Shown: positions 2,958 through 40,246, counted from the first letter of the stretch. The stretch: DNA of 60,972 nucleotides from an uncultured Bacteroidota bacterium (GCA_903919925.1 CAIXKO010000623.1:1-60972), one strand, 5' to 3'. Numbers and translations are program-made. The notes: generated by a model not told the origin, from the letters alone.

Positions 2958-5009
2958 ATGGTTACGGGAATGATACGACTGACCGCATTAAGAACGGTAA
3001 TATTTCTGACCCTGCATTTGCTATTTGCCTGTAAAGGGTTATCGGAAGGCTGGTACTTTTCAAATACAGGAGATGACCGCTTTTCAGGAAAATCTCGTGA
3101 TACCCCCTGGGCGACCCTCGACAGGCTCAATACGCAGGAATTGAAGCCTGGTGACTCGCTGTTTTTCAGGCGGGGTGATATCTTCAGGGGACAATTAATA
3201 CTGAGATATTCAGGTATTCCGGGTAATCCCATTTTCATAGGCACTTATGGCTCAGGTGATGCGCCTGTATTTTCCGGAACAATACCTGTACAAAAATGGC
3301 AGAAGTATAACGACCGGATCTTTTCAGCAGCTGTGAATTCTCCCGTCCGGTCGGTTTACATTGATCAGGTGATGGCAATTAAGGCTCGCTATCCTAACAC
3401 CGGTTTTCTGACCATAGATAAAGGAATTGGCCGGGATGGGCTGGCCGATGAGTCGCTCAGGGAGGAGGGCGGGTACTGGAAGGGTGCAACTGTCAGGATC
3501 AGAACCATAGACTGGGTGTATGAAGTAAGAAAAGTATCATCCTACAAAAAGGGTGAAATACGGTTCGGAAAACATGCCGGTTATCCGGTAGAACAGGGAT
3601 ATGAGTACCGGTTTTCGCCGGATCAGAATCAAACCATGTATGATATCCAGCCGGGTTACGGATACTATCTGGAAGATAAATTCGAACAGTTGGATGCTCC
3701 TGGTGAATGGTATTTTGATCAAAAGGAAAACAGGCTGTTTATTATGGCGGATACGGCATCGCTCATCGAGGCGGGTGTGTTTGATTATGGGGTAAAGTTT
3801 GAAAATGAGATTCATGATATTGTAATTCAGGGGATTGTTCTCGAAAAGTACACCGGGGCAGGTACATACAGCGCTTACCCGGTTTGGAATTTGGATATTC
3901 GGGATAATGTATACAGGAATATGGATGGTTCCGGGATACGGCTCGATGGAATTCCTACCCACTGCACGATTTCCAGCAACCGGATGGACCGGATTAACTC
4001 GAGGGCGATTTCCCTGATGCGGGCGGTTGATTGCACCGTCACCGGCAATCAGATATCGCATACCGGCCTGATCAGGGGCTATGGATTAAGTGGTGTCAAT
4101 GGCGCCTCAGCGATCTCCATGCCAAACCTTGAAACCCAGGTGCAATCGGAGCCCTTTGCGCATAATAACCTGATTCAGTTCAACACCATCGATAGTTGCG
4201 GTTATGTAGGTATCCGGGTGGATGGACACGATAACACCATAATCAATAATGTGATCAGCAATTGCATGCTCACACTGAACGATGGGGCGGGAATTTATTG
4301 TTTCGCAAGACAAACCGGGGTAACCTTTAAAAATACCATCCAAAATAATATAGTTATCAATATTATTGGTGATAATACGGGTACGCCGGGCAATTCATTA
4401 ATAGCAAAAGGAATCTATCTTGATAACTATTCACATGAAAATATGGTGGAGGGAAATACCATTATCAATGCCCGTTCGGCCGGAATATTGGTCAATGACG
4501 GGTCGAACAGAAACAAAATCCTCAACAACAACCTGTTTGGAAACAATGCCGGGATTTCGTTTGCAGAATGGCGGAGTGTTGGACAGAATTACGGAAACGA
4601 AGTCAAAGGAAATTCGGTTATCTGTGCAAAAGCTTCCCAAAAGGCAATAGACCTGATTAATCATATTTCAAGTGAAATGAAGCCAGCCATTTTTGAAAAT
4701 AATTTTTACTGCAATTTTTATGATCAGTATTTCTTCAGAATCCTGACTAATCATAAAATTTACCGGAATACCAGTGAAATGTCGTTTGATGTCTGGAAAG
4801 ACAGGACGAGGCAAGATGGTACGAGCAAGTCTCTGAATCCTGGGGATTTGGTGAAATATCCGGGGGGAGCGATTATACTTTATAATGAGGGGAAGATTGA
4901 AAAAGAGTATTCAATTAAGGAAAAAAAATATTATTATATTGATGGGAAAAGGGCGGGGGAGAGTATTACTTTGGAGCCTTTCAGGTCGGTAATATTGTTG
5001 GTGGAATAG
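2958..5009 (+). CDS. Right-handed parallel beta-helix repeat protein, probable lipoprotein
   Basis: N-terminus ...FLTLHLLFACKG is signal/lipobox-like. Beta-helix rung motifs: NVISNCMLTLNDGAGIYCF, NNIVINIIGDN, EGNTIINARSAGILVNDGS, NNNLFGNNAGISF. The first ~130 aa are colinear with 33987..36107 (PGDSLFFRRGDIF / PGDEVLFHCGQIF; ARYPNTGFLTIDKG / ARIPATGFFPIEKG). Confidence 0.7.
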   Translation: MVTGMIRLTALRTVIFLTLHLLFACKGLSEGWYFSNTGDDRFSGKSRDTPWATLDRLNTQELKPGDSLFFRRGDIFRGQLILRYSGIPGNPIFIGTYGSGDAPVFSGTIPVQKWQKYNDRIFSAAVNSPVRSVYIDQVMAIKARYPNTGFLTIDKGIGRDGLADESLREEGGYWKGATVRIRTIDWVYEVRKVSSYKKGEIRFGKHAGYPVEQGYEYRFSPDQNQTMYDIQPGYGYYLEDKFEQLDAPGEWYFDQKENRLFIMADTASLIEAGVFDYGVKFENEIHDIVIQGIVLEKYTGAGTYSAYPVWNLDIRDNVYRNMDGSGIRLDGIPTHCTISSNRMDRINSRAISLMRAVDCTVTGNQISHTGLIRGYGLSGVNGASAISMPNLETQVQSEPFAHNNLIQFNTIDSCGYVGIRVDGHDNTIINNVISNCMLTLNDGAGIYCFARQTGVTFKNTIQNNIVINIIGDNTGTPGNSLIAKGIYLDNYSHENMVEGNTIINARSAGILVNDGSNRNKILNNNLFGNNAGISFAEWRSVGQNYGNEVKGNSVICAKASQKAIDLINHISSEMKPAIFENNFYCNFYDQYFFRILTNHKIYRNTSEMSFDVWKDRTRQDGTSKSLNPGDLVKYPGGAIILYNEGKIEKEYSIKEKKYYYIDGKRAGESITLEPFRSVILLVE

Positions 5010-25378: not shown

Positions 25379-27466
25379 ATGCCTGAATTAAAACTCTCAA
25401 ACAAACACTTTACCCTGAAGTTCCCCGGAAACACCGTGTTTTTCGAGTATTGGATAAACGGTTCAAGCAGACCCTTTTGCTTCTCTTTTCCGGTTTTTGA
25501 GATCGGGGGAATAACAGCGCAAATCAGGATCGATCATTGGGAAAAGCCCATCCTGGTGGAAGAATTTTCCAATGGGGTGATTGAATATTCATTATGCGGG
25601 ATTTCCACCTTGCCGGACCTGTGGATTCAACTGTACATCCGTATAGCCAATAACAACCCGATTGTCCGGTTCCGGTATGAATTGTTTTCGGACAAGCTAT
25701 GCCGGCTGACAAAAAACCTATCATCCGGCGGAATTACCTATTTTGGGCTGAACCTCTCTGAATTTGATCGATTCAGAGAAGTGCGCCTATCGGAATTCAA
25801 TGAAATGGTTCATTCCAACCATCTCACGGAATGTGAAATCGATGATTCGTGGTTTGAATCCGGCAGTTCGATCATGGGACCCATATTCATTTCGATGGGT
25901 AAAAACAGATCGTTTCTCCTTGCATACGAACACGGGTCGCAATATCCTGACCGGTTTCTGGAGTTTCAGTTATACCCCTATCGCAGCCTGGCTCTTAAAG
26001 CAGTAAAAGCCAATTATCTGCACAATCAAACCATTGGAGGGGAAATACCTTTTGAGACCGTTTGGTTTGAGGCCGGCGGAGTATCAGGCGATGAGAACAA
26101 GCTGGCAGCTGAATACCGGGACTTTATTCATCGTTATATCTGCATCAACCAGGAGAGCCGGAAGCCTTATATTTTCTACAATACCTGGGGAAGGCAGGAA
26201 AAGATCAAATGGGCCGGGGAACGATATCTGACCAGCATGAATCTGGAATATACCCTTAAAGAAATCGACCGGGCATATGAGCTTGGGATCGAGGTGTATG
26301 TATTGGATACGGGCTGGTATAACAAAACAGGCGACTGGAGGGTCAATCTCACACTTTTTCCCGATAACCTGCAACTGATCAGGGGGAAATTGTTGGGATA
26401 TGGTATGAAGCTGGGATTATGGTTTAATCCAACAACAGCAGCCATTTCCAGTGACATGTTAATGAAAAACGAAAAGTTCAGGGTTACCCAAGGAGGAAAT
26501 CGCGATGAGCCATACGAGGTGTGGGAAACGGAGAAAAGCGTGGGGTTATGCCTGGTTAGCCCCTATTGGGAAGATTTTGCTGACCGGCTGACCCAACTGG
26601 TAAAGGAAACCGGAGTTACCTATTTTAAGTGGGATGCCATTTGGCAATATGGTTGCGATGCGCCGGGGCATTTTCATGGAGATGAGCATTGTACGGAGCA
26701 CGATCGGAAGGACCGGTATGCCTATATGCTTCCAATATATATGTCGAAAGTGATTGAAAAAGTGACCCGTAATTGCCCGGATGCGATTTTTGATTTCGAT
26801 ATTACCGAGGAGGGCAGATGCGTGGGGCTGCAGTTTTTGGCGCATGGAAAATACTTTGCCATTAATAACGGACCCTACTACCACAATTTTGATGTGAGTG
26901 AGCAGTGGAAAAGCCCGACTGCTGACGGCAACCCTAATATCTTTGTAAATCCGGGCCCTGCCAGAGGCTGGTTTACCCGGTCGGTTCTGGATTACGATAA
27001 ATGGATTCCATCGGTCCTATTTCTGACTCATTATTACCCTTATGAACCGGCATCCTCGCAGATGCAGAACCTGGCTTCCCTGATGCTGGGACAGAACGGG
27101 ATATGGGGTGAAATTAACAGCCTGCCTGCGGCGAGTGTCAACCTGATTCACCGGCACCTGGCTTATTACAAACAAGTGCGTGAGGATATTACCTTCAGTA
27201 CCCTGGTTCAAAAGGGTCGGCCGGGAGACAGTTGCGAGTGGTATGAGAAAATCAATGCGCAAACGGGAAAGGGGGTACTGGTTATGTTTGGCAATACCGG
27301 AGGTGTTTACCATTACATTACCTCCGCTTCGGTAAATCGGGAAGTTATATTTCCCGATTCGGTATCCGTCCGGTTTGATTCAAAAGGCAGGGCAGTGGTT
27401 AAAGTATTTTGCAAAGAAAAGGAGGCTGTGATAATCTATTTTGGGGTTAAAGATTCAGAACGCTGA
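25379..27466 (+). CDS. Clan GH-D-like (GH36/GH27 melibiase-like) glycoside hydrolase, no signal peptide
   Basis: The central TIM-barrel-like region YIFYNTWGRQ...IEVYVLDTGWYNKTGDWRVNLTLFPDNLQLIRGKLLGYGMKLGLWFNP...YFKWDAI follows the D-x-GW...GDW...FP...GxKxGLW...KWD layout of melibiase-type enzymes. The N-terminus MPELKLSNKHF is not hydrophobic. Family assignment is tentative. Confidence 0.45.
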   Translation: MPELKLSNKHFTLKFPGNTVFFEYWINGSSRPFCFSFPVFEIGGITAQIRIDHWEKPILVEEFSNGVIEYSLCGISTLPDLWIQLYIRIANNNPIVRFRYELFSDKLCRLTKNLSSGGITYFGLNLSEFDRFREVRLSEFNEMVHSNHLTECEIDDSWFESGSSIMGPIFISMGKNRSFLLAYEHGSQYPDRFLEFQLYPYRSLALKAVKANYLHNQTIGGEIPFETVWFEAGGVSGDENKLAAEYRDFIHRYICINQESRKPYIFYNTWGRQEKIKWAGERYLTSMNLEYTLKEIDRAYELGIEVYVLDTGWYNKTGDWRVNLTLFPDNLQLIRGKLLGYGMKLGLWFNPTTAAISSDMLMKNEKFRVTQGGNRDEPYEVWETEKSVGLCLVSPYWEDFADRLTQLVKETGVTYFKWDAIWQYGCDAPGHFHGDEHCTEHDRKDRYAYMLPIYMSKVIEKVTRNCPDAIFDFDITEEGRCVGLQFLAHGKYFAINNGPYYHNFDVSEQWKSPTADGNPNIFVNPGPARGWFTRSVLDYDKWIPSVLFLTHYYPYEPASSQMQNLASLMLGQNGIWGEINSLPAASVNLIHRHLAYYKQVREDITFSTLVQKGRPGDSCEWYEKINAQTGKGVLVMFGNTGGVYHYITSASVNREVIFPDSVSVRFDSKGRAVVKVFCKEKEAVIIYFGVKDSER

Positions 27467-27505: not shown

Positions 27506-27922
27506 ATGAAACCTATTAAAAATCAATTTTGGCTTATCGTTTCAGTTATCTTGTTTACTGCCTGCAATACTGCCGGTATTAAAAGTGAAAAACCCGATTC
27601 CATTCCCGATCGCCTGAAATGGTTCAACAACGCCAAGTTCGGCATGATTATCCATTGGGGCCCCTATGCCGGCAAAGTAGATGATGCATCGTGGCCGGTG
27701 ATGCTGAACCAGATATCAGAAGAAGAATATTCGAAGTTTCCTGAAACGTTCAATCCGGGTAAATTCAACCCCGATGAGTGGGTGAAACTCGCTCAGGAAG
27801 CCGGTCAGCGGTACATGGTTTTTACTGCCAAGCACACCGATGGATTTTGCATGTTTGATACCAAACTCCTGAACAGTTTATTCCCACAGGTATACCAACA
27901 AAATCATCAGGAGTTAACCTGA
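27506..27922 (+). pseudogene. Truncated GH29 alpha-L-fucosidase (N-terminal ~120 aa only)
   Basis: Lipoprotein signal ...VILFTACNTAG, then RLKWFNNAKFGMIIHWGPYA and GQRYMVFTAKHTDGFCMFDTKL (GH29 hallmarks). Similarity is lost after ~27870 and the ORF stops at 138 aa. The intact GH29 at 38879..40246 is 455 aa. Confidence 0.7.
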
Positions 27923-28096
27923 TCGGATTGAATTACGAGAACAATGTTCATCTTCAAATTTCTCAATCAGTATACCCAATAATTCCGCCTCGTCGCCTTC
28001 AGGGGTATCAACCGGCGCATCAAATATTACCTCTAGCCTTTTAAGAGCCTGCTGATATTCTTCTTCCGATTTTATTAATCTCGCTTCCAAGTCCAT
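27914..28096 (-). pseudogene. N-terminal remnant of a HigA-type antitoxin (HTH domain missing)
   Basis: MDLEARLIKSEEEYQQALKRLEVIFDAPVDTPEGDEAELLGILIEKFEDEH matches the conserved N-terminal helix pair of HigA-family antitoxins. The ORF ends 9 codons later without the C-terminal HTH. No HigB-like ORF is adjacent. Confidence 0.55.
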
Positions 28097-28174
28097 TAAA
28101 TCCTGGCTACAACTTTGTTTATTTTTAAAATTGTCAAGGCAAAGATAGCAGTATGTTACCAATTTGGTAATCAT

Positions 28175-28262
28175 GATTTTTTTACCCCTTTTCACAAGAT
28201 TTTTCATCCTTCTCCTGATTTGCCACAGTCTATCTTTCGGGGTCTGATCAAACTGCAGAAAA
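28175..28262 (+). promoter_or_regulatory. Copy B of the conserved upstream element, in front of GH92
   Basis: gatttttttaccccttttcacaagatttttcatccttctcctgatttgccacagtctatctttcggggtctgatcaaactgcagaaaa. It has a -7-like TATCTTTC at 28231-28238, 41 nt before ATG 28280. Confidence 0.5.
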
Positions 28263-28279
28263 CGATAAACAACTGTAAA

Positions 28280-30538
28280 ATGAAATGTGCTGAAAATCAC
28301 TGTTTGCAAAAATGGCTGCTGGTATTGGGTTTTCTTCTTATTCCCATGATTTTACCCGGGCAATCAAAGCTGTTGCCGGTCCAATATGTAAATCCGTTTA
28401 TCGGTACCGAAAATGGCGGCAATGTTTTTTTGGGCGCTGCAGTGCCTTTTGGCCTGGTAAAACCGGGACCCGATTGCGGAAACAACGATAACAATTCGGG
28501 TTACCGGCAAGAGGGGAACATCAATGGTTTCAGCCATACCCACGTGAGTGGTACCGGTGGAGGCGCCAAATACGGGAACATACTTCTCCTGCCAACAACA
28601 GGTGATATCCGGATCAAAGGTTCAGGTTCACCACGGTCAGGCGAGGAAGCTTATGCCGGTTACTACTCGGTATTTTTGTCGCGCTATCAGGTTAAAGCAG
28701 AGCTGACTGCAACTCGCAGTACCGGCTTTCACCGATATACATTCACCAACCCCCAATCCGGGAATGTATTGATAGATGCAGGGCATTTCCTGGATTTTGG
28801 ACACGATTGGGGTGAGGCACAGGAATTTGTTGGCAGTGAGCTCCATATTCTTTCAAATACCGAAATCGCAGGGTACAGCCGCATCCGGGGCGGGTGGAAC
28901 AAGGGAGGTGCATATACCGTGTATTTTTATGCGGTTTTTAACCAGGAATCGATCCGGTCGGGCACCTGGAAAAACGAAACGCTGCATCCCGGGGTGTTAG
29001 ATCAGCCTGATACCGGCGACAAAACAGGAGCCTGGTTTTCATTCAACTCTTCATCGGGAGGCCCGGTGCTGGTTAAAGTTGGAATATCGTTTATCAGTTC
29101 AGGCAAAGCAAAACTCAATGCAGATCAGGAGATCCCGGGCTGGGATTTTGACGCAATCTGCAAACAAACATCCGAAACCTGGAACAGCCTGCTGTCAAAA
29201 GTAGAGGTTGACGGCGGATCAGAATATTATAAATCAATGCTTTACACAGGATTGTATCATTCCATGCTGATGCCAACCCAACGATCGGGGGAAAATCCGA
29301 AGTGGAAATCAACAGAGCCTTATTATGACGATTACTATGCCATCTGGGATACCTATCGTACCACATCACCGCTGCTCACCCTGATTTTGCCGGATACTCA
29401 GCGCGATATGATCCGGTCGATGATCGATATTTACCGTTTTGACGGGTACCTGCCCGATGCCAGGAGCGGCAACGATAATGGCCGGACCCAGGGCGGTAGC
29501 AACAGCGACATGGTTATTGCAGATGCTTTTGTGAAAGGGCTTAAGGGTATCGACTATGAAATTGCACTGCAGGCAATGATCAAAAATGCTGAGGTTCCGC
29601 CCGGTGGAAATGAGCAAAAGGAAGGCAGGGGAGGAATTGAAGATTACAACACAATCGGCTATGTTTCCACCAACCACGAACGTGCAGGCACCCGGACGAT
29701 GGAATATGCGGCTTGTGATTTTGCTATCGCTACCCTGGCAAAAGGTTTGGGGAAAACTGACCTTTACGAAAAATACCTGAAACGATCATCCAACTGGACG
29801 AACCTCTGGCGGCCTGTTGAATCCTTTGGAGCATCAGGATTCATCTGGCCCCGGAAAAGAGATGGAACCTGGGAAGAGAATTTCAACACCCTGCAGCCCG
29901 GAAGCTGGGGCGATTTCTTCTACGAGAGCCAGTCGTGGGAAATATCTTTATATGTGCCCCACAATGTTCCGGGACTGATCGCCAAATGCGGCGGAGCTGA
30001 AAAATTTGAAACCAGGCTCGACACGTTTTTTATTAACAGCCGTCCCAACCGGCAAGGGTGGATGGATTTTTACAACGTGAATAATGAACCGGGCTTTTTA
30101 ACGCCGATGCTCTATCATTATATCGGGAAACCCGATAAAAGCAGTGAGCGGATCAGGCAAATCATTCAAGCATACTTTTCTATCAACCGTAATGGATTAC
30201 CCGGGAACGATGACTCCGGAGCCATGTCCTCCTGGCTGGTATTTCATCTGATGGGATTTTTTCCGGTGGCGGGTCAGGATATATATCTCATTGGAGCGCC
30301 TCATTTCCCAAAAACGACCATTGACCTCGGGAATGGAAAAGAATTTAAAGTTATCGCCAAAAACCTGAGCGAAAAAAACAGATTCATCCAATCGGCCACT
30401 TTGAACGGGCAACCCATTGACCGTGCCTGGTTCAGGCATACTGAAATCTCCAATGGAGGAACTTTAACACTTGTGATGGGAGAAAGTGCTGCATACTGGG
30501 GCTCATCTGGTCTCCCGCCAACAGATCCCACTGAATAA
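28280..30538 (+). CDS. Glycoside hydrolase family 92 (alpha-mannosidase family)
   Basis: VQYVNPFIGTENGGNVFLGAAVPFGLVKPGPDC, HTHVSGTGGG and GNDDSGAMSSWLVFHLMGFFPV are GH92 hallmarks. I moved the start to ATG 28280, which gives signal peptide MKCAENHCLQKWLLVLGFLLIPMILPG. The ORF-track start 28115 runs through the upstream element. Confidence 0.88.
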   Translation: MKCAENHCLQKWLLVLGFLLIPMILPGQSKLLPVQYVNPFIGTENGGNVFLGAAVPFGLVKPGPDCGNNDNNSGYRQEGNINGFSHTHVSGTGGGAKYGNILLLPTTGDIRIKGSGSPRSGEEAYAGYYSVFLSRYQVKAELTATRSTGFHRYTFTNPQSGNVLIDAGHFLDFGHDWGEAQEFVGSELHILSNTEIAGYSRIRGGWNKGGAYTVYFYAVFNQESIRSGTWKNETLHPGVLDQPDTGDKTGAWFSFNSSSGGPVLVKVGISFISSGKAKLNADQEIPGWDFDAICKQTSETWNSLLSKVEVDGGSEYYKSMLYTGLYHSMLMPTQRSGENPKWKSTEPYYDDYYAIWDTYRTTSPLLTLILPDTQRDMIRSMIDIYRFDGYLPDARSGNDNGRTQGGSNSDMVIADAFVKGLKGIDYEIALQAMIKNAEVPPGGNEQKEGRGGIEDYNTIGYVSTNHERAGTRTMEYAACDFAIATLAKGLGKTDLYEKYLKRSSNWTNLWRPVESFGASGFIWPRKRDGTWEENFNTLQPGSWGDFFYESQSWEISLYVPHNVPGLIAKCGGAEKFETRLDTFFINSRPNRQGWMDFYNVNNEPGFLTPMLYHYIGKPDKSSERIRQIIQAYFSINRNGLPGNDDSGAMSSWLVFHLMGFFPVAGQDIYLIGAPHFPKTTIDLGNGKEFKVIAKNLSEKNRFIQSATLNGQPIDRAWFRHTEISNGGTLTLVMGESAAYWGSSGLPPTDPTE

Positions 30539-30649: not shown

Positions 30650-32485
30650 ATGCCTCTTCAAAACATCGATTTACATCAGCAATACCGGGCACTCCAGGCA
30701 CAGCTAGCCTCTGGCTGGAATACCTGGAACACCAAAAGCGTGCTCAGCCATGTTCTCCTGCCGTATGGTTTCAATATCCAGATCTGCATAAAAAACACAT
30801 TTATATCAGGAAATCAGTATCTTAAAGATTCCTATATCTCATCGAAAGAGGCCCGGCCCGAGAAGATCACTCCTGGTTACCATGCATATAATGGAAGCTA
30901 TACAGCGTTGCAGGTTGAATTTGAGGGCACGGTGGTAAAAGTGGAAACCGGTCATGATGCAGAAGATCTGCTTATTTTGATCACTCCGGAGAAGCTCGCG
31001 TGGAAAAATCCCCATATCGTACTGGAAACCGGCATGCTTTGGAACAAACCGGGTGAAGTGCGCAAAAAGAAGAATCAGGTTATTGCTCAATTTGCCGATA
31101 ACCAGATTTCTGTTAGTTCAACAGCCACTGTGCTGGAAGATTTTTTGCCCGTAAATGGTCCTTACCTGAGTGTGGAACTCAACGGAACAATAGGATTTTA
31201 CACCGGCCGGCAACGCAACCTGGAAGAGATCGGGTTAATCATTTCCGATAAAAGGAACCTTTATGATTCCGCATTAAAAGCTTATGCTCCACTGGAAGAT
31301 ACTTACGAGGCGCTGCAAAGTGTGATTGCCTGGAACGTGATTTACGAACCTTTTGGCGACCGGGTAATTTTTCCGGTGAGCCGGTTGTGGAACGATTTTT
31401 TTGGCGGTCCGTTCGTCCTTTTCGATTGGGATACCTTTCTGGGAGCCTGGATGGCCTCGCTTGGCAGCCGGGAGCTGGCTTATGCCAATGCGGTTGAAAT
31501 TACCAAACATATTACCCCGGGCGGTTTTATTCCCAACTATGCGGGGGGGTATGGCCTGGGTTCCCCCGATCGGTCGCAACCACCCATCGGAAGCCGGGTA
31601 TTCCTGGAGTTGTATAAGAAATTTAAGGAGGCCTGGATTCTGGAATACGTATTTGATGATCTGTTACGATGGAACCGGTGGTGGAATGAAAAGCGGAATA
31701 CCAATGGGTTTCTGTGCTGGGGATCGGACCCCCTGCCTGAACCAAACAATGGCGATTGCAATAACTGGCAGGCGGCAGCTTACGAAACCGGACTCGACAA
31801 TTCGCCCATGTATGACGGAATTCCATTCAATACGGAAACCCATAAAATGGAACTGGCCGATGTGGGATTGATGGGAATGTATGTGATGGATTGCGACTGT
31901 CTGTTTGAAATCGCAACAGTAATCGGCCGTAAAACGGAAGCTGAAGAACTGGCGATAAGAAGCAGCGCGTTCAACCGTAAGTTAAAAGCATTGTGGAGTG
32001 ATGAAAATGGGATTTTCCTCAATAAACGCACCGATACCGGGGCGTTCAGCCATAAACTTTCCCCCACACTTTTTTATGCCATGCTTTCCAAAGCACCCTC
32101 TCAGGCCCAGGCTGAGCGGATGATCAATGAACATTTCATGAATCCGGATGAATTTTTGGGGGATTGGATCATCCCTTCGATATCACGCAACGATCCTGCT
32201 TTTGCTGAGCAGGGGTACTGGCGGGGAAGAATCTGGGGACCGATGAATTTCCTGGTTTATCTGGGGCTTAAAAACTATGATTTACCGGAAGCCACTCAAT
32301 TAATGATTGAGAAATCCAATGCATTGCTGATGAATACCTGGCAAAAAAACAAGATGGTACATGAAAATTACAACGGTATTTCAGGCAATGGCAGAAACGC
32401 GGACGAGCGGATCAACCTGAGCGATTCCTACTACCATTGGGGTGCGTTGCTGGGGTTTATGGCGCTGCTGGAGGTTTCAGAATAA
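30650..32485 (+). CDS. GH63-like (YgjK / MGH-type) (alpha/alpha)6 glycoside hydrolase, cytoplasmic
   Basis: AFAEQGYWRGRIWGPMNFLVYLGLKNY...VHENYNGISG...YYHWGALL is colinear with the E. coli YgjK C-terminus as I recall it (YWRGRVW...QENYNPLTG...FSWSAA). It also has FDWDTFLGAWMA and YETGLDNSPMYD. No signal peptide (MPLQNIDLHQQY). Confidence 0.7.
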   Translation: MPLQNIDLHQQYRALQAQLASGWNTWNTKSVLSHVLLPYGFNIQICIKNTFISGNQYLKDSYISSKEARPEKITPGYHAYNGSYTALQVEFEGTVVKVETGHDAEDLLILITPEKLAWKNPHIVLETGMLWNKPGEVRKKKNQVIAQFADNQISVSSTATVLEDFLPVNGPYLSVELNGTIGFYTGRQRNLEEIGLIISDKRNLYDSALKAYAPLEDTYEALQSVIAWNVIYEPFGDRVIFPVSRLWNDFFGGPFVLFDWDTFLGAWMASLGSRELAYANAVEITKHITPGGFIPNYAGGYGLGSPDRSQPPIGSRVFLELYKKFKEAWILEYVFDDLLRWNRWWNEKRNTNGFLCWGSDPLPEPNNGDCNNWQAAAYETGLDNSPMYDGIPFNTETHKMELADVGLMGMYVMDCDCLFEIATVIGRKTEAEELAIRSSAFNRKLKALWSDENGIFLNKRTDTGAFSHKLSPTLFYAMLSKAPSQAQAERMINEHFMNPDEFLGDWIIPSISRNDPAFAEQGYWRGRIWGPMNFLVYLGLKNYDLPEATQLMIEKSNALLMNTWQKNKMVHENYNGISGNGRNADERINLSDSYYHWGALLGFMALLEVSE

Positions 32486-32543
32486 TCAGAAGGTCATTTC
32501 CGGAAAAATCAACGAAACATCATGATAAATAACTTGTTATGAA

Positions 32544-32607
32544 GTACCAACCCCCTGGCCCCTCCCTGAAAAAGGGAGGGGGAATGAGCAATAAATTCCC
32601 TTCGGAG
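32544..32607 (+). repeat. GC-rich hairpin element, copy 1
   Basis: agtaccaaccccctggcccctccctgaaaaagggagggggaatgagcaataaattcccttcggag. By hand alignment it is ~90% identical to 36152-36216. The core hairpin is CCCCTCCCT-gaaaa-AGGGAGGGG. Confidence 0.8.
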
Positions 32608-32677
32608 GTTGGAGAGGGTAATTAATGACCGATTATATAGTAGTCACCAGAAAAGCAATAATCTAATTCAAAACAAT

Positions 32678-33910
32678 ATGATTCGCCCATTTTATTTCTT
32701 TTTTAATGCGGCATTAAGCATTATTTCTTCCTTTTTGCCTGTCTATCTCGAATCAAGAGGGTTTTCCGGTACCCAGATAGCGAATATTATGGCACTGGAT
32801 TCCATTATTGCTATACTGGGTATCAGTATATTATGGGGTTATCTTTCCGATAGGACCCAAAAACCCGCAATGATACTTCAAATACTTGCTTTGGGAACTG
32901 CCCTGTCCTTTATTCCGATACTCTTTGGAGGATCAGCGTATTATCTGGTGTTTCTAGGCTATTTGATATTTGGATTCTTTAGCTGTCCAATCGGGGGCAT
33001 CTCCGATTCGCTGGCCGTTGTGCATGCCCGGGATAAAGGCATCGATTTCGGCAAAATCCGGGTGTGGGGTTCTATCGGCTGGCTGTCATCAACCCTTTTG
33101 GTAGGTTTTTGGCTGGCAGCAAAGGGTACCGATATTCCGGTTAAAAGCTTTAATGATGCAGTGGAAGTTGCCAAAGCAATGTTTGCCGGAAAAGGAATAA
33201 ACTGGAACGATCCGATTGTGATTGTATTGGTTATTTGCGGCTTTGCCGTCACCTTTTTAACCACTCTTGGATTTAGTAATGCCAAAAAGGGAGAAACAAA
33301 GAAAGATTCCAGACCCGGGTTTTCCGATCTGAAGTTAATACTGAAGAACAGGTACTTCCTGATCTTCCTGATCGTGGTTGCCCTGCACATGCTATGCCTC
33401 AAATCGTTTTACTTCCTCTTTGGCATACATGTCAAGAATTTAGAGATGAGTCCAACTATTCTGAGTATTGCATTTTCAGTTGGAACCCTGGCTGAAATCC
33501 TGGCATTTTCCATTTTTGGCTGGCTTCGCAAATATTTCCGCTTAGAGATATTAATAGCCATCGCAACTGGAATCAGCTTGTTGCGCTGGGCTTTACTGGC
33601 CAACACTGAATCAGTTGGACTGCTTATCTTTAGTCAGTTACTGCATGCTGCCACTTCGGGCATATTCATCGCGGCAGCCGTTTCCTTTGTTGCCAATGCC
33701 GCCGAGCCTAAATTATTGGTTACCTACCAGCAGGTGTATTATTATGCCATGTTTATCGGAAATTTAATCGGAACGTATGCATCCGGATTTATTTATGAGG
33801 GATTTAATAAAAGTGCCATTCCGGTATTTTATGTGATGAGTGCCGTAGAGCTCCTTGCCATGATGTTCATTTTACTATCCATGCGTTTGCCCAAAAACCC
33901 CACCGCCTAA
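32678..33910 (+). CDS. MFS transporter (probable oligosaccharide:H+ symporter type)
   Basis: About 12 hydrophobic segments over 410 aa (e.g. FFFNAALSIISSFLPVYL, AILGISILWGYL, LIFSQLLHAATSGIFIAAAVSFV). I moved the start to ATG 32678; the ORF-track start 32609 is TTG. Confidence 0.8.
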   Translation: MIRPFYFFFNAALSIISSFLPVYLESRGFSGTQIANIMALDSIIAILGISILWGYLSDRTQKPAMILQILALGTALSFIPILFGGSAYYLVFLGYLIFGFFSCPIGGISDSLAVVHARDKGIDFGKIRVWGSIGWLSSTLLVGFWLAAKGTDIPVKSFNDAVEVAKAMFAGKGINWNDPIVIVLVICGFAVTFLTTLGFSNAKKGETKKDSRPGFSDLKLILKNRYFLIFLIVVALHMLCLKSFYFLFGIHVKNLEMSPTILSIAFSVGTLAEILAFSIFGWLRKYFRLEILIAIATGISLLRWALLANTESVGLLIFSQLLHAATSGIFIAAAVSFVANAAEPKLLVTYQQVYYYAMFIGNLIGTYASGFIYEGFNKSAIPVFYVMSAVELLAMMFILLSMRLPKNPTA

Positions 33911-33915
33911 CCCCA

Positions 33916-33986
33916 TCAACCCTTGAGTCCCTCAACCCTTCAACCAATCAACCCTTCAACCCTTCAACCAACAACCCCTCAACAAT
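33916..33986 (+). repeat. Octamer microsatellite (TCAACCMW)x9 filling the MFS / beta-helix intergenic spacer
   Basis: Units: tcaaccct tgagtccc tcaaccct tcaaccaa tcaaccct tcaaccct tcaaccaa caacccc tcaacaat. The last unit abuts ATG 33987. Confidence 0.9.
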
Positions 33987-36107
33987 ATGCCCCAATACTA
34001 CCTCTCAACCACCGGCAACGATGCCAATAACGGCCTTTCAGCAGACAGCTCCTGGAAAACCATCGCCAAAGTAAATACCATGTCGCTGAACCCGGGCGAT
34101 GAAGTTCTCTTTCATTGTGGTCAAATATTCCCGGGTGAGTTAATTATCTGTCAATCAGGTACGGAAAGCCAACCCATTTTAATCAGCTCCTGGGGTACCG
34201 GAAACAAACCCATTTTAACTGGGGCAATTCCGGTTACCGGCTGGCATTTGGAGGAAGGCAACCGGTACTCCAGTAATCTGAACCACACAGTTTTCCAACT
34301 GTTTGTAAATGATAGGTTGTACCATCTTGCCCGAATTCCCGCAACCGGATTTTTCCCGATCGAAAAGGGAGATAAATCCAATCTGACGGATAACCGGCAT
34401 CTGAATGTGAAATTTGATCTCGCCGGAGCCACTGCACGGATCAGGGCGGTAAACTGGCAGTACGAAACCGCAAAGGTGGCGGCCCATCACGATGGTACCA
34501 TCACATTTACCGAAAACATGATGTATCAGTGTAATCCCCGGTATGGCTATTTTCTCGATAACAAAGCGGAATTTCTCAATCAGCCGGGACAATGGTTCCG
34601 GGACGAATTATCACAGAAAATCAGTATTATCCCTTTAGCTCAGGAAAATCCTGATCTTCAGAAAGTGGAAGCTACCATTTATCAAAATGGGATAACGATT
34701 TCTGAAGGGGTAAAATATATCAGGATCAGCGGCCTCCAGCTGGAGAAATATGAAAATGCCGCCATTTCAGGGTTGAGCAATAGTGGTTACGTCCACATTT
34801 CGGATTGCCGTATCCAGGATATTAACGTGTATGGAATTTGTCTGGATATTAATTCCGGCCATTACACCATTGCGAACAACGCCATCACCGATATCCGCGG
34901 ACGGGGGATTTCAACCATTGAAAGTAGTTATAATGAAATCACAGGCAATGAGTTGCTGTGTATCGGACTTTATCCGGGATATGGATTCAACGGGGTGAAT
35001 AATGGGGTGGGAATTGCAATATTAAAAACAGAAGTAAAATTCCAGATTAGCCAGTCGACTTTTAATCAATTAAATAAATTAATTATTCCTTCCGATATTT
35101 TAATAAAAATTGCTGAATTAATTGATTTACCCTATCCCGATGAGAAATTTGTGGTGGAAGCGCTTGAAAATAAACTTGGTAAAGAAACTACTGAAAAATA
35201 TAGCCCGCTGATTATGGCATTGGTGAGGGCAGAAGCGATTGCCCAAAAGCTGGAATCAACCCATAACCGGGTGGCATACAACAGGGTTGACAGTACTGGA
35301 TATGCGGGTATCCGTGTGGATGGAAGTAATAGTATTGCTGAATTTAATGTAATCAAAAACACCTTGCTGCACATGAACGATGGCGGGGCCCTGTATTGCT
35401 GGGCTCAAAATGAAGATTATACACACCATAATATTTTTCGGAACAATATCATTATTAATGCAATCGGTAGTTGTGAGGCAACGGCAAATGACCTGGCTTA
35501 TGCGTATGGAATTTATACCGATAACAAATGCCATCACATTACCATCGAAAACAATACGGTGGTGGGAGCAGCAGGCGGAATACTAATCAACGATGAGGGC
35601 CATCATCAGAAAATAGTCGGTAATACCTTATATGATAACCGGTTTGGACTTGTATTCTCGGAGTATTGCAGCCCGGGCACCTTGATAGGCTGTGAAGCTT
35701 ACGGAAATACACTTTTTTGCAGAAAAAGGGATCAGCGGGCCTTGTTCGTGGAATCGCGCGTAAGGGAAGGATTTGTTCCCGGAATTTTGAATAACAACCT
35801 GTACGCCAATCCTTATTATCCGTTTCCAATCATCGCCCTTACTTACCGTAATCAGGTGCGCACCTACCATGAGTATACCCTGGCATCATGGCAAAAGCAT
35901 GATCAGCAGGATGCGGACTCAACAACCATTGCCACAGCAAATCATGATGCAGGAGGACAGCAATCGCTTATCCTGATAAACGAAACCGCCGAAACTAAAT
36001 CTTTTGACATCACCTCTGATTTGCAATATATCGATCTGAAAGGTAATGTATTGGGTAATTGCGTGGAGGTTGCCGCTTTTAGCTCGTTGATAATTTTGCA
36101 GGTGTAA
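33987..36107 (+). CDS. Right-handed parallel beta-helix repeat protein without signal peptide (paralogue of 2958..5009)
   Basis: Starts MPQYYLSTTGNDANNGLSADSSWKTIAKVN. Rung motifs ANNAITDIRGRGIS, EFNVIKNTLLHMNDGGALYCW, RNNIIINAIG, ENNTVVGAAGGILINDEG, VGNTLYDNRFGLVF. There is an in-frame TGA at 33924-33926 and no alternative start between it and the ATG, so no hidden signal peptide. Confidence 0.75.
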   Translation: MPQYYLSTTGNDANNGLSADSSWKTIAKVNTMSLNPGDEVLFHCGQIFPGELIICQSGTESQPILISSWGTGNKPILTGAIPVTGWHLEEGNRYSSNLNHTVFQLFVNDRLYHLARIPATGFFPIEKGDKSNLTDNRHLNVKFDLAGATARIRAVNWQYETAKVAAHHDGTITFTENMMYQCNPRYGYFLDNKAEFLNQPGQWFRDELSQKISIIPLAQENPDLQKVEATIYQNGITISEGVKYIRISGLQLEKYENAAISGLSNSGYVHISDCRIQDINVYGICLDINSGHYTIANNAITDIRGRGISTIESSYNEITGNELLCIGLYPGYGFNGVNNGVGIAILKTEVKFQISQSTFNQLNKLIIPSDILIKIAELIDLPYPDEKFVVEALENKLGKETTEKYSPLIMALVRAEAIAQKLESTHNRVAYNRVDSTGYAGIRVDGSNSIAEFNVIKNTLLHMNDGGALYCWAQNEDYTHHNIFRNNIIINAIGSCEATANDLAYAYGIYTDNKCHHITIENNTVVGAAGGILINDEGHHQKIVGNTLYDNRFGLVFSEYCSPGTLIGCEAYGNTLFCRKRDQRALFVESRVREGFVPGILNNNLYANPYYPFPIIALTYRNQVRTYHEYTLASWQKHDQQDADSTTIATANHDAGGQQSLILINETAETKSFDITSDLQYIDLKGNVLGNCVEVAAFSSLIILQV

Positions 36108-36145
36108 TAGTTTTCAGGCGTATGAATATTTGGCAGATAAATTGT

Positions 36146-36256
36146 CTTAAAGTACCCTCCCCCTGGCCCCCTCCCTGAAAAAGGGAGGGGGAATGAGCAA
36201 TAAAGTTCCCTTGGAGAAAAGCCCCACCGTTTTTCAGGGGGGGTGGGTACTTTAAG
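36146..36256 (+). repeat. GC-rich hairpin element, copy 2, bounded by 12-bp inverted repeats
   Basis: CTTAAAGTACCC (36146-36157) and GGGTACTTTAAG (36245-36256) are perfect inverted repeats. They enclose the shared core (36152-36216, CCCCCTCCCT-gaaaa-AGGGAGGGGG) and a second hairpin, CCCACC...GGTGGG. Confidence 0.8.
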
Positions 36257-36304
36257 TCTTATCGTCCATGGATCTACCTTTCTTAACATCAATTATTTAC
36301 AACA

Positions 36305-38698
36305 ATGAACTTTTCAGACAGAAATAATCCGGAAGCATACTATTTTTTCGACGACAAGGCCCGGGAAGTGATTATAAAACGATACGATACGCCCACTCCC
36401 TGGATGAACTATTTCTCGAACGGGATTTTCCATACCATGATGTCGCAGGCCGGCGGGGCAGTGGCTTTCTACAAATCGCCACAGATCTGGAGAATTAACC
36501 GCTACCGGTTTTTTCACCTGCCCACCGATCGGTCCGGGTTATACTATTATATAAAAGATGCAAAAACCGGTGAATTCTGGTGCCCCACTGCGGAACCGGC
36601 TTTTACCAAACCGGGGAAATGGCAGTCGGCACATGGATTGGGATACACCCGCTTTGAGGCTGAACACAATGGAATAAAGGCTGAATTGCTTTATTTCATT
36701 GGCAACCAGGAGAACTGCGTGGTGTGGAACCTGAAACTCACCAATACCTCGGCGGAAAAAAAGGAAATTGATTTGTTTGCTTTTGTTGAGTTCGGAATGA
36801 TGGAGTATATGCGCGAATTATCGTGGGTATGCTATAACAAACATCAGGTTAAGGTTGATTTTAACGAAAACCTCGATGCCATTATTTACGATTATGCGGT
36901 GGAAATGCAACCCAAACCGTTGGAAACACCGCTGGTTTATCTCGCCTCGGATCAGAAGGTTTTTTCTTATGATGGCGATCGCGATGAGTTTATCGGGAAT
37001 TATCGTTCAGAATCCAATCCTTATGCAATTGAAAATTCCGGTTGTACCAAATCAACTCTCAAGGGAGGCGACCCATGCGGAGCGCTCCAGATCAGTGTTG
37101 TTCTGAACCCGGGTGAATCCAAAACCATCAATACTTTTTTAGGCACGGGACTCAAAATCAGTGATATTGAAAAGTCTCTGGAAAATTGCCGCAAATCCGG
37201 ATTTGTAGAGAATTCGCTGTCATCGCTGAAAAGCGAATGGGAAAACTATACCTGTCATTTCCAATGCAAGCTTCCCGATAAAGATGCCGAGCGCGAAATT
37301 AATATTTGGAATCCTTATCAGGCCCAGCGCAACTTCCTCTTTTCCAGAAATATATCGTATTATGCCACCGGTACTTTCCGGGGAGTGGGTTTTCGCGATA
37401 CTTCTCAGGATGTACTTTCCCAGATCCCAATCGATATGGAAAGTGCAAAATCCAAAACCCGGGAACTGCTCAGTCAGCAGTATAACGATGGGCATACCAA
37501 CCATTACTATTTCAAAACCGAAGGCTGGGAGCCGCTCAACCGGCTGCATTCCGATAACCACATCTGGCCTATTCCGGTGGTTTGGAACATTATTATGGAG
37601 GAGGGCAAAACCGACTTTCTACACGAGATTATTCCCTTCTTTGATGGCGGGGAGGGCAGCGTATATGAGCATCTGTGTCGGTCGATCGATTTTACCAGGA
37701 ACAATATCGGGGCCAATGGATTTCCGCTGATGCTTACTTCCGACTGGAACGACATGTTGTACAAAGTTTGCCGTGAGGGAAAAGGTACCAGTATCTGGAT
37801 GGCGATGTTCCTTGGTTTTGCACTTCCCAAACTGGCCGAATTGGCTGAATTACTCAATGATTCAGATCATTCCGGAAGCTTTATGGAGATGTGGGAAACT
37901 CAAAAACAGCTGGTAAACAGCAAAGCATGGGATGGTAAATGGTTCCGGCGTGCCACCATGGATAATGGTCAGTATTTAGGAACCGCTGAAATGGACGAAG
38001 CCAAAATATTTCTGAATACCCAGTCCTGGTCGGTGATATCAGGAATGGCAGATGAGGATAAAATGGCCACTGCCATGGATTCCGTCAGTGAACTGCTGGA
38101 TACGGATCTGGGGATAAGGAAAATTTGGCCATCTATCGTAAACTTCCCGACTCCGGAGGATCCGCTTTCCCATTACAACAAGGGAACCGGTGAAAACGGA
38201 TCCATCTTCTGCCACGCCAATACCTGGGCGATCATTGCCGAGTGTATGCTGGGCAATGGCGATCGGGCATGGAAGTATTACCGTCAGCTGATCCCTAAAG
38301 TGGCTATGGAAATGGCAGGGGCCTGGCGGTATAAGGCTGAACCGTATGCTTATGCCTCCAACTTTTTTGGGCCTGAATCAGATAAGTTCGGATTGGCTAA
38401 TGTGTCATGGCTCACTGGTACCGCATCGTGGATGTATGTTGCTGCAACCCAGTATATTTTGGGCATCCGTCCGGTTTGGGAAGGGTTGCTGATCGATCCC
38501 TGCCTGCCATCGGAATGGGAGGAAATCAGTGTGGATCGCATTTTCCGCGGATGTAATGTCCATATCACGATAAAAAAACCAGTGGGAGTATGCAAAGGGG
38601 TCAGCCAGATTAGTGTTGACGGGAAGCAGATTGAGGGGAATATCGTGGCGGTAAAAAGGGGCGAAACGGAAATATCGGTTAATGTAATGATTGGATAA
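36305..38698 (+). CDS. GH94 glycan phosphorylase (cellobiose/chitobiose-phosphorylase family)
   Basis: YYFFDDKAREVIIKRYDTPTPWMNYFSNG...MSQAGGAVAFYKSPQIWRINRYRF, NIWNPYQAQRNF...GFRDTSQD, TSDWNDML, ENGSIFCHANTWAIIAE and NVSWLTGTASWMYVAATQYILGIRP are colinear with cellobiose phosphorylases. 797 aa. No signal peptide. Confidence 0.88.
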   Translation: MNFSDRNNPEAYYFFDDKAREVIIKRYDTPTPWMNYFSNGIFHTMMSQAGGAVAFYKSPQIWRINRYRFFHLPTDRSGLYYYIKDAKTGEFWCPTAEPAFTKPGKWQSAHGLGYTRFEAEHNGIKAELLYFIGNQENCVVWNLKLTNTSAEKKEIDLFAFVEFGMMEYMRELSWVCYNKHQVKVDFNENLDAIIYDYAVEMQPKPLETPLVYLASDQKVFSYDGDRDEFIGNYRSESNPYAIENSGCTKSTLKGGDPCGALQISVVLNPGESKTINTFLGTGLKISDIEKSLENCRKSGFVENSLSSLKSEWENYTCHFQCKLPDKDAEREINIWNPYQAQRNFLFSRNISYYATGTFRGVGFRDTSQDVLSQIPIDMESAKSKTRELLSQQYNDGHTNHYYFKTEGWEPLNRLHSDNHIWPIPVVWNIIMEEGKTDFLHEIIPFFDGGEGSVYEHLCRSIDFTRNNIGANGFPLMLTSDWNDMLYKVCREGKGTSIWMAMFLGFALPKLAELAELLNDSDHSGSFMEMWETQKQLVNSKAWDGKWFRRATMDNGQYLGTAEMDEAKIFLNTQSWSVISGMADEDKMATAMDSVSELLDTDLGIRKIWPSIVNFPTPEDPLSHYNKGTGENGSIFCHANTWAIIAECMLGNGDRAWKYYRQLIPKVAMEMAGAWRYKAEPYAYASNFFGPESDKFGLANVSWLTGTASWMYVAATQYILGIRPVWEGLLIDPCLPSEWEEISVDRIFRGCNVHITIKKPVGVCKGVSQISVDGKQIEGNIVAVKRGETEISVNVMIG

Positions 38699-38878: not shown

Positions 38879-40246
38879 ATGAAGAGTACATTTCTCTTAA
38901 TAGCTTTTGTGATTGCCGGTAACCTGTTTGGCCAGCAAAATCCCTACGTGCAGCCCGCTGACAGCTCCAAAATGCAGTGGTTTAAAGAAGCAAAACTTGG
39001 CATATTTATTCATTATGGAATCTATGCGGTAAACGGCACCGGTGAGTCGTGGCCAATCTATAACAATGAAATTCCTTATGCTGATTACATGAGTCAGCTG
39101 AAAGGATTCACAGCCAGCAAATACAATCCGGAATCATGGGCCCGGCTGTTTAAGGAAGCCGGTGCCAGATATGCGGTACTCACCACCAAGCATCATGATG
39201 GAGTCGCTTTATGGGATACAAAAATGAGCGATCTGAGTGTAGTAAAGAAAACACCAGCCAGGCGCGATCTGATAAAGCCTTATGCTGAGGCACTTCGTAA
39301 GGAAGGATTGAAAGTGGGCCTCTATTTTTCGCATCTCGACTGGTCGAATCCCGATTACGCAACGGTATTTGATGGCAAGGACAGGAATCCTAAAAACCCG
39401 AACCCCTGGGATTATCCAAAGTCAGGTGTTGAAGATACAGTCAGATGGAACCGTTTTCTGGCATTCAACCGGGGTCAGCTAAAAGAGTTGCAGGAAATTG
39501 CAAACCCTGATTTATGGTGGTTCGATGGCGACTGGTCCCGGACGGCACAACAATGGAAGATGAAAGAATTGCGGCAAACACTGCTCACGTGGAATCCTAA
39601 AGCCATTTTGAATTCGCGGATGCAAGGGTATGGCGATTATGTCACCCCTGAGCAGGGAGTGCCTGTTGCGGGTCCGCAAGGCCCCTGGGAACTTTGCATG
39701 ACCATCAACGACTCCTGGGGTTACAGGGGTATCGATACTAACCAGAAATCGCTTGACTATATCATCCGTATATTTTCGGAATGTATCAGCATGGGCGGCA
39801 ACCTGCTGCTGGATGTAGGACCCAAAGAAGACGGGACCATCACCCCGGAACAATCTGCCACATTAAAAGGATTGGGGCGATGGACCAAAAAGCATTCGGA
39901 GGCCATCTATGGTACTCAAAGAGGGATACTGCCCGGCCATTTTTATGGTCCAACCACCTTGTCGAAAGATAAAAAAACGCTCTACTGCTTTGTTCTGGAC
40001 AATCCAAAAGCGGAGGTTGTAGTGAAGGGAATCCGCAATAAAATCAAGGCGATCCGTGTGTTGGGCAGCAATCAGGATCTGAAATTTAAACTCAATGGAG
40101 GAGCTTCGTGGCTGAATATCCCGCCGGTACTACTGATCGATCTTCCGGCAGATCAGCTCGATAGAAACACAACCGTTATCGCCATTGAACTGGATACGCC
40201 TTTGGAATTGTACCGGGGTGAGGGTGGGGCGGTGGAGAAGAATTAG
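38879..40246 (+). CDS. GH29 alpha-L-fucosidase
   Basis: Signal peptide MKSTFLLIAFVIAGNLFG. MQWFKEAKLGIFIHYGIYAV, GARYAVLTTKHHDGVALWDTK, GLKVGLYFSHLDW and WWFDGDW motifs. 455 aa. Confidence 0.88.
   Translation: MKSTFLLIAFVIAGNLFGQQNPYVQPADSSKMQWFKEAKLGIFIHYGIYAVNGTGESWPIYNNEIPYADYMSQLKGFTASKYNPESWARLFKEAGARYAVLTTKHHDGVALWDTKMSDLSVVKKTPARRDLIKPYAEALRKEGLKVGLYFSHLDWSNPDYATVFDGKDRNPKNPNPWDYPKSGVEDTVRWNRFLAFNRGQLKELQEIANPDLWWFDGDWSRTAQQWKMKELRQTLLTWNPKAILNSRMQGYGDYVTPEQGVPVAGPQGPWELCMTINDSWGYRGIDTNQKSLDYIIRIFSECISMGGNLLLDVGPKEDGTITPEQSATLKGLGRWTKKHSEAIYGTQRGILPGHFYGPTTLSKDKKTLYCFVLDNPKAEVVVKGIRNKIKAIRVLGSNQDLKFKLNGGASWLNIPPVLLIDLPADQLDRNTTVIAIELDTPLELYRGEGGAVEKN

Follow-up and report, generated by a model that had tools for sequence, protein, structure and literature searches.

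Models of polysaccharide utilisation loci (PULs) put β-helix depolymerases outside the inner membrane. The family 141 glycoside hydrolase (GH141) BT_1002 is periplasmic, and the GH120 enzyme XylC is an intracellular exo-enzyme. A cytoplasmic precedent is provided by Roseburia hominis, where the signal-less GH136 enzyme RhLnb136 is reported to split imported lacto-N-tetraose and a GH112 enzyme of the same locus, RhGLnbp112, to split the released disaccharide (PMC7335108); a cytoplasmic GH94 enzyme carrying out the finishing step in a Sus-type PUL is described for the Segatella copri mixed-linkage glucan PUL (PMC11418011). Here we describe a locus of an uncultured Bacteroidota bacterium, lying on a stretch of 60,972 nucleotides (GCA_903919925.1, CAIXKO010000623.1:1-60972; 'the window' denotes this whole stretch), in which four consecutive plus-strand genes at 30650..38698 encode a GH63-like protein (P0003), a major facilitator superfamily (MFS) permease, a β-helix protein (P0001) and a GH94 phosphorylase (P0004). 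From sequence and model comparisons we hold it reasonably probable that P0001 is a cytoplasmic, probably retaining glycoside hydrolase that would finish the digestion of an oligosaccharide imported by the permease, leaving the remainder to the GH94 enzyme. An earlier sequence-only reading of the window could name no pathway step for a cytoplasmic β-helix enzyme; the RhLnb136 and GH112 pair supplies one.

Open reading frames (ORFs) and Pfam agree with that reading on the positions and families of the four genes, and on a paralogue of the β-helix gene elsewhere in the window:

30650..32485, plus strand: GH63-like/MGH1-like protein P0003, 611 aa, a signal-less (α/α)6 glycosidase with the Pfam domains MGH1-like_GH and Glyco_hydro_63
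ORF 32609-33910, likely 32678..33910, plus strand: MFS permease, 433-aa ORF, MFS_1_like, HcaT/LacY-like
33987..36107, plus strand: β-helix protein P0001, 706 aa, signal-less, a GH141/GH136-like putative retaining glycosidase with Pfam Beta_helix and NosD
36305..38698, plus strand: GH94 phosphorylase P0004 of a divergent clade, 797 aa, with both GH94 Pfam domains
2958..5009, plus strand: β-helix paralogue P0002, an exported lipoprotein (lipobox LFAC), 28% identical to P0001 over the full length

A longer P0001 is ruled out: a TGA at 33924-33926 closes the frame of ATG 33987 on its upstream side, and none of the 20 intervening codons is ATG, GTG or TTG, just as the sequence-only reading had it; neither can the GH63-like and GH94 proteins be extended upstream, since the ORF calls already take the earliest possible start codon. 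N-terminal hydropathy, taken as the highest Kyte-Doolittle mean of any 10-residue stretch among residues 1-45, reaches 0.66 in the β-helix protein, 0.21 in the GH94 and 1.25 in the GH63-like protein, against 2.3-3.5 in exported neighbours. The lack of an export signal claimed for all three therefore stands, and no alternative gene model of P0001 yields one. The lipoprotein-type signal ascribed to the paralogue at 2958-5009 is likewise borne out by its lipobox, with Cys25, and the mature start of this protein, 'WYFSNTGDD' (from residue 32), pairs with P0001 residues 4-12. P0002 retains both catalytic-type Asp residues described below and is without the helical insertion of P0001.

Signal absence extends over much of the P0001 family. 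The family alignment holds 62 sequences from 83 proteins, most of them from 79 search matches; fragments (P0030, P0060) and longer, shorter or multidomain proteins (P0065, P0066, P0069-P0080, P0082, P0083) were omitted. Forty-three sequences begin 3-18 residues before the motif 'YY.S..GND' and have no hydrophobic leader, one of them (P0037) being ambiguous, and the remaining 19 of the 62 carry classical leaders. Signal and helical insertion combine as follows:

signal absent, helical insertion present: 43 of 62 sequences
signal present, helical insertion present: 11 of 62 sequences
signal present, helical insertion absent: 8 of 62 sequences, including the window's paralogue
signal absent, helical insertion absent: 0 of 62 sequences

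A quick IQ-TREE search under LG+G4, run without the leader columns, with P0037 left unlabelled and the long-branched P0081 as root, resolves two signal-less clades, one of 19 sequences (support 100) and one of 22 that includes P0001 (support 99), with signal-bearing clades falling between and outside both. At least two changes of signal state are needed on this tree, a number that none of 500 label shuffles matched and within which parsimony cannot separate two losses from one loss and one regain. By alignment and tree, then, the missing signal is a property of whole clades and does not stem from faulty annotation. Few genomes carry the family, and these are scattered: at E <= 1e-40 it has matches in 10 of 400 other genomes of the order and in none of four from the same genus, and a search with P0048 for the second signal-less clade in a sample of 400 genomes from across the phylum gave no match.

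The β-helix fold read from the sequence is confirmed by structure prediction and by Foldseek, and the identity of the protein is now GH141/GH136-like with BT_1002 as best match; no known family of cytoplasmic epimerases or acetyltransferases matches P0001. AlphaFold2 (AF2) run with the 62-sequence alignment gave pLDDT 93.8 and pTM 0.91 (pLDDT 29.9 without alignment), and in the model a long right-handed β-helix is interrupted by four inserted helices (356-419) and followed by a C-terminal β-sandwich (~600-706). Foldseek ranked GH141 BT_1002 (5mqp) top, with E 9.5e-18 and TM 0.55/0.64, then GH120 XylC and then GH136. In the VIA comparison P0001 and BT_1002 align over 458 of 601 residues with Z 31.3 and a root mean square deviation (rmsd) of 2.7; almost all of the other 49 listed entries align over ~270-360 residues, LnbX reaching 386 (Z 26.3) and BsaX 382. 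Generic β-helices (AlgE epimerases, NosD, PL6 lyases, tailspikes) have Z 25-31, but with 270-360 residues aligned.

At sequence level the sole solved relatives found by a single-sequence PDB search are GH136 lacto-N-biosidases, over residues 4-101, and the NCBIfam LnbX model scores 35.4 bits against a cut-off of 2500 and covers residues 4-76 only, so the similarity falls short of a full-length GH136 match. The family profile matches GH136 (7v6m, 3.7e-28), 9rx2 (5.5e-17, residues 7-333; the literature search found no paper on PDB 9RX2) and GH141 (5mqp, 1.7e-14). Because residues 420-706 alone had no phmmer match in the PDB at E <= 10, the catalytic region was mapped through the genome's own GH141, a bona fide member with a lipoprotein signal that matches 5MQP at E 4.8e-47. 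BT_1002 requires D523 and D564 (PMC12786026), which stand in that alignment at chain positions 528 and 569, with an unchanged spacing of 41, inside the motifs 'D.aGvYtlG' and 'ytDEGs'; hhalign of the family alignment with the genome's GH141 gave a probability of 99.1% and E 1.7e-18 over 462 columns and paired these motifs with 'MNDGGALYC' and 'GIYTDNKC'. The features of P0001 located in the model and by this mapping are:

35025..35261, plus strand: ~79-residue insertion (residues 347-425), with helices 356-363, 369-376, 386-397 and 399-419 in the AF2 model
35379..35381, plus strand: codon of D465 in 'MNDGGALYC', by the alignment chain the equivalent of BT_1002 D523, invariant in 62/62
35520..35522, plus strand: codon of D512 in 'GIYTDNKC', by the alignment chain the equivalent of BT_1002 D564, invariant in 62/62

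Given the hhalign match and the invariance of both Asp residues, P0001 is, by profile comparison, homologous to GH141 and retains its catalytic pair. The match speaks at the profile level for homology, not for membership of GH141, and P0001 is best placed as an uncharacterised subfamily within the GH141/GH136 β-helix group, closest to GH141 and a distant relative of both families.

A transporter gene adjoins the signal-less β-helix gene in all eight distinct loci (L numbers designate the loci examined in other genomes). For the first clade these are the window, L006, L007, L008, L090, L091 and L092, each with an MFS orthologue (56-80% identity) directly upstream; L006 is the same contig as L089, and L008 the same as L093. 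In the second clade, at L198, the β-helix gene lies between a sodium:solute symporter (SSF) and an MFS homologue (33% identity), with a GH39 upstream. No transporter is adjacent at either of the two loci with 44%-identical, signal-bearing copies (L196, L197). The window's permease scores 167 bits with Pfam MFS_1_like and 131.6 bits with an HcaT-type NCBIfam model, below the cut-off of the latter. Its ORF opens at TTG 32609, and its start is most likely ATG 32678 (residue 24, 'MIRPFYFFF'), where the orthologues start. The pairing supports the view that the signal-less β-helix enzyme would work with the permease on an imported sugar.

The phosphorylase P0004 scores 235 bits with PF06165 (the N-terminal supersandwich) and 371 bits with PF17167 (the (α/α)6 catalytic domain), and in the PDB matches chitobiose phosphorylase (ChBP) at 460 bits and cellobiose phosphorylases (CBP) at 410-447 bits. 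In alignment with 1v7v and 3qde, its D483 (in 'SDWND') and its R364 and D365 (in 'GFRD') are matched by identical residues; the roles of the DWND general-acid Asp and the subsite -1 Arg-Asp are described elsewhere (PMC8741936, PMC5309861). Besides these three residues P0004 conserves the 'FCH' phosphate-site region and the Arg closing subsite +2. At subsite +1 Cys176-Tyr177 replace the neighbouring-subunit Gln-Arg (or Gln-Met) of CBP and ChBP, and 'GTGEN' replaces '(Y/V)KEN', so that the Lys, which we take to be a subsite +1 residue of those enzymes, is a Gly and their +1 pattern is lost. Among 36 GH94 sequences taken from the examined loci, 'SWVCY', 'SDWND' and 'GTGEN' occur in 11/11 members of the P0004 clade and 0/25 other GH94s, all 25 of which have Ala or Gly before 'DWND' and Lys in 'KEN'. 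The window's genome has three GH94 genes, and the copy on contig C97 is a canonical cellobiose phosphorylase (1320 bits to 3QDE). P0004 is, judged by scores and motifs, neither a cellobiose nor a chitobiose phosphorylase and sits in a clade of its own whose +1 site is altered; the sequence-only reading had proposed placing it among the cellobiose, chitobiose, laminaribiose, cellobionate and β-1,2-oligoglucan clades, and it falls in none of them.

Matches of 61-67% identity to P0004 occur at 9 places in 8 genomes of the 400-genome sample of the order, about 70 genomes having only matches of 31-37%, and relatives at 60-62% identity are found in the Firmicutes Paenibacillus spp., Anaerocolumna and Gorillibacterium. 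Because these are closer than the other Bacteroidales GH94s, the identities suggest transfer of this GH94 type between phyla. Solabiose phosphorylase was considered as an identity for P0004 and rejected: PBOR_28850 has 768 aa and is at most 29.2% identical to characterised GH94s, and in P. rubinfantis the relative of P0004 is WP_059044530, a different protein from the WP_059040761 of the solabiose phosphorylase work. A candidate identity for the P. borealis member of the 62% cluster is the characterised glucosyl-glucuronide phosphorylase PBOR_13355.

The GH63-like protein P0003 passes the cut-offs of both its Pfam models (MGH1-like_GH 117.9 bits, cut-off 27; Glyco_hydro_63 33.8 bits, cut-off 22.4), has weak PDB matches to TTHA0978 and YgjK, and is placed by Atlas in MGH1-like/GH63/trehalase clusters with TM up to 0.96, a populous family. 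A homologue (39%) in L238/L239 bears a lipoprotein signal, and exported (L238) and signal-less (window, L202) members of the family begin at the same conserved motif.

The surroundings are those of a Sus-type PUL, with SusC/SusD pairs, a regulator and at least ten CAZyme genes identified by Pfam in the window:

13308-17528: hybrid two-component regulator (Pfam)
18350-23188 and 46097-50911: SusC/SusD pairs (Pfam)
25379..27466, plus strand: GH36-like protein (Melibiase), 695 aa, Pfam Melibiase E 9.2e-18, no hydrophobic N-terminus
28280..30538, plus strand: GH92 α-mannosidase (Pfam), exported; a start at the internal ATG gives MKCAENHCLQKWLLVLGFLLIPMILPGQS
38879..40246, plus strand: GH29 α-L-fucosidase (Pfam), exported; hydrophobic N-terminus, score 2.96
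40381-42003: GH39b, start MEKVTRRKMIKNSMVTAAGWSIF, resembling a TAT rather than a Sec export signal

The GH92 enzyme counts as exported once its start is set to ATG 28280. Since the GH36-like protein also has no signal, the cytoplasmic enzyme set of the PUL exceeds the four flagged genes, and from its N-terminus this protein is probably another cytoplasmic member.

In the mechanism we propose, the exported GH92, GH29 and two GH39 enzymes, the lipoprotein β-helix paralogue and type IX secretion system (T9SS) proteins would cut a complex glycan, probably one with fucose and mannose, outside the cytoplasm, and the adjacent MFS permease would import a small oligosaccharide. This would be cleaved in the cytoplasm by the β-helix enzyme, with D465 and D512 as the presumed nucleophile and acid/base pair; the GH63-like and probably the GH36-like glycosidases would join in the trimming, and the divergent GH94 would use phosphate to split the leftover β-linked disaccharide into a sugar 1-phosphate and a free sugar.

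It is conceivable, if rather unlikely, that the four genes are neighbours by accident of PUL assembly, the β-helix and MFS genes forming one module and the GH94 and GH63-like enzymes acting on other substrates in no joint pathway. That all four share a strand, that 76-197 bp separate them and that none of these spacers holds a terminator-like site speaks for a unit, though the scan itself was no richer than shuffles (13 promoter-like sites against 30.4 in shuffles, with a sigma-70 model ill-suited to Bacteroidota, and 18 terminator-like sites against 20.2). A GH94 (77%) is again downstream in L007, on the same strand and after an exported GH95, but at no other locus, and a GH63-like orthologue (79%) precedes the MFS gene at one other locus only, L090. 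Both families occur together in six genomes: among the 400 sampled, six of the eight with a P0004-type GH94 are among the ten with a β-helix family match, counts that include close kin (G028 and G169 are of one genus). Against a joint pathway, the GH94 and β-helix genes of these six genomes are on different contigs, and P0004-type GH94s stand in eight other loci with permeases of their own, GH3, GH38, GH9 and sulfatases and no adjacent P0001-type gene. The L006 genome has no P0004-type GH94 (best 33%) and its GH63-like genes are on another contig, the L007 genome has the GH94 and no GH63-like gene, and a third, small genome has neither. Only the MFS and β-helix pair is conserved, the GH63-like and GH94 genes coming and going, and the eight loci that carry the pair amount to two independent lineages, the second with a single locus. 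The four-gene sub-cluster of the sequence-only reading therefore holds as an adjacency in the window and not as a conserved unit, and its transporter pathway keeps the support of clade-wide signal loss and permease adjacency but not that of a fixed gene set.

The identity of P0001 has further points against it, which we set beside those just given. GH141_M scores 21.9 bits on P0001 (24.9 in the genome scan), below its 27-bit cut-off, for which reason the protein is not filed as a GH141 member; identity to BT_1002 in the structural alignment is 20%, AlgE epimerases, NosD and PL6 lyases come nearly as high by Z (29-31), the Asp residues were mapped by a chain of three sequence/profile alignments and not by superposition, and signal peptides were assessed by hydropathy alone. 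It is improbable, on our estimate, that P0001 is instead a PL6-like polysaccharide lyase or an AlgG/AlgE-like C5-epimerase that works in the cytoplasm on uronate-containing oligosaccharides: AlgE6 and AlgE4 (Z 31.1 and 30.9) and PL6 lyases (~28-30) are within 1-3 units of BT_1002 in VIA, and there are weak N-terminal alginate lyase matches to the family profile (3.8e-06) and an NCBIfam AlgG match of E 0.0023, but the lyase and epimerase matches span 310-350 residues against 458 for GH141, the extended sequence-level relatives are GH136, GH141 and 9rx2 only, both GH141 catalytic Asp residues are invariant, and no GH88, GH105 or uronate-pathway gene turned up in the Pfam scan of the window. Even less credit is due to a P0001 that is not cytoplasmic, being exported without an N-terminal signal, or is a decaying copy. 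β-Helix CAZymes of PULs are normally exported and the C-terminal β-sandwich is superficially like a sorting domain; T9SS substrates need a Sec signal, however, and Por_Secre_tail, which Pfam found in six other window proteins, was not found in P0001. Decay is disfavoured because the frame is intact and the 43 signal-less homologues have lost neither length nor any conserved residue. Equally far-fetched, to our mind, is a non-catalytic cytoplasmic sugar-binding or regulatory protein of enzyme descent, for NosD-like β-helices can be non-enzymatic but exported and signal-less members alike keep the GH141 catalytic pair, and many residues around it, without variation. A cytoplasmic glycosidase paired with a permease accordingly remains our preferred reading of P0001.

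Beyond the window, genes next to the P0004-type GH94 were as follows:

MFS_1 permease: L236, L237, L240, L243
SSF and Sugar_tr permeases: L238, L239
GH3: L237, L241, L242, L243
GH38: L241, L242
GH9 and GH2: L240
sulfatases: L236, L237, L240, L209

An inner-membrane permease is nearly always a neighbour of this clade, and the gene order in L238/L239 is β-helix lipoprotein, GH63-like lipoprotein, SSF, GH94, sugar porter, the β-helix lipoprotein being of a different subfamily from P0001. Of the nine loci in other genomes, four have a sulfatase gene directly beside the GH94, a hint at a sulfated parent glycan in the organisms of those four; no sulfatase was found among the window ORFs of at least 200 aa. 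On the minus strand of L236 (12803-15556), flanked by a sugar porter on one side and the MFS-GH94 pair on the other, a 917-aa protein with only weak GH94 domain scores (76 and 57 bits) is possibly one more divergent phosphorylase. URO-D-family genes stand beside β-helix homologues or this GH94 clade in six loci (L196, with two copies, L198 and L236-L239), in L237 with ORFs that by eye resemble a corrinoid protein and a G3E GTPase, and might point to demethylation of methylated sugars.

Several minor features of the window complete the picture. The whole MFS-to-β-helix spacer is filled by one repeat:

33912..33983, plus strand: C/A-rich tandem repeat CCCTTCAA x 7.2 (also period 24 x 2.3)

Its 13-mer CAACCCTTCAACC has no second occurrence in the window, and its length is not conserved, since the corresponding spacers at orthologous loci measure 3-116 bp. 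A short ORF at 27507-27920 has a lipoprotein-like leader and an α-L-fucosidase-like start ('...KFGMIIHWGPY...') and by eye ends after ~138 codons, which gives it the look of a GH29 gene cut short, and is followed on the minus strand by a 131-aa ORF (27914-28309). The minus-strand block at 5044-8442, between the exported β-helix paralogue and the rest of the PUL, encodes a ParA-like ATPase, a Schlafen/AlbA_2 protein with a RecG-C-like domain and DUF4143, and looks like an inserted mobile or defence-type segment. A 941-aa T9SS protein (8580-11405, minus strand) is 27-28% identical over ~170 residues to the β-helix lipoproteins L238:1944-4199 and L242:1176-3389, and a second β-helix subfamily may thus be tied to the same glycan. 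The listed sequencing runs that contain the window's DNA are lake-water metagenomes only, with no RNA run among them.

A broader interpretation, which we offer tentatively and think somewhat doubtful, is that the cytoplasm has more than once taken over periplasmic glycosidases of PULs, the GH141-like subfamily having lost its signal at least twice, each time beside a dedicated permease, and the GH63-like family being split likewise into exported (L238/L239) and signal-less (window) members, to form a private intracellular finishing module comprising a new GH family or subfamily of novel exo- or 'biosidase' activity together with a GH94 clade of undescribed disaccharide specificity. A cytoplasmic clade conserved alongside permeases would mean that part of complex-glycan debranching takes place inside the cell, its products unavailable to competitors. 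The analysis in any case flags two enzyme groups without a characterised member, the GH141-like subfamily with the helical insertion and the GH94 clade with the altered acceptor site, the latter spanning Bacteroidales and Firmicutes including Paenibacillus; phosphorylases of new specificity are wanted for oligosaccharide synthesis. A literature search that left most of the subscription literature outside its reach found no report of a cytoplasmic GH141-like enzyme, a new β-helix GH family or a P0004-type GH94 clade.

The known systems each resemble the locus in part. The abstract-level description of the S. copri PUL mentions no β-helix partner for the GH94. CBP and ChBP share with P0004 the GH94 domains, the 'DWND' Asp, the subsite -1 'RD' and the 'FCH' region, and differ in the Gln/Arg pair (Cys-Tyr in P0004), the 'KEN' Lys (Gly) and the residue before 'DWND' (Ser). 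XylC (3VST) is a β-helix glycosidase and the fifth-ranked Foldseek match to P0001 (E 5.3e-15), but TM is 0.46/0.51 and rmsd 11.2, and no sequence-level relation was found. RhLnb136 is like P0001 in being a signal-less β-helix glycosidase, reported to act inside the cell with a phosphorylase in the same locus, and GH136 entries are the best sequence-profile matches of the P0001 family. Beyond the first ~100 residues the similarity is no longer strong, the Roseburia locus has an ABC transporter and GH112 where ours has MFS and GH94, and R. hominis is a Firmicute, not a host of Sus-type PULs; GH136 enzymes moreover need an LnbY-type second subunit or domain. The GH141 group, which includes the α-L-fucosidase BT_1002 of the rhamnogalacturonan-II PUL (5MQP), the xylanase Xyn141E and the Wf141 endo-fucanases, shares with P0001 the right-handed β-helix, the N-terminal 'Y.S..G.D.N.G' cap and both essential Asp residues, and BT_1002 is described as releasing substituted fucose, that is, a disaccharide unit (PMC12786026). 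P0001 differs in its extra ~79-residue helical insertion and in having no signal peptide, the genome's own GH141 bearing a lipoprotein signal. Set against these systems, P0001 represents an uncharacterised, cytoplasmic form of a familiar enzyme type.

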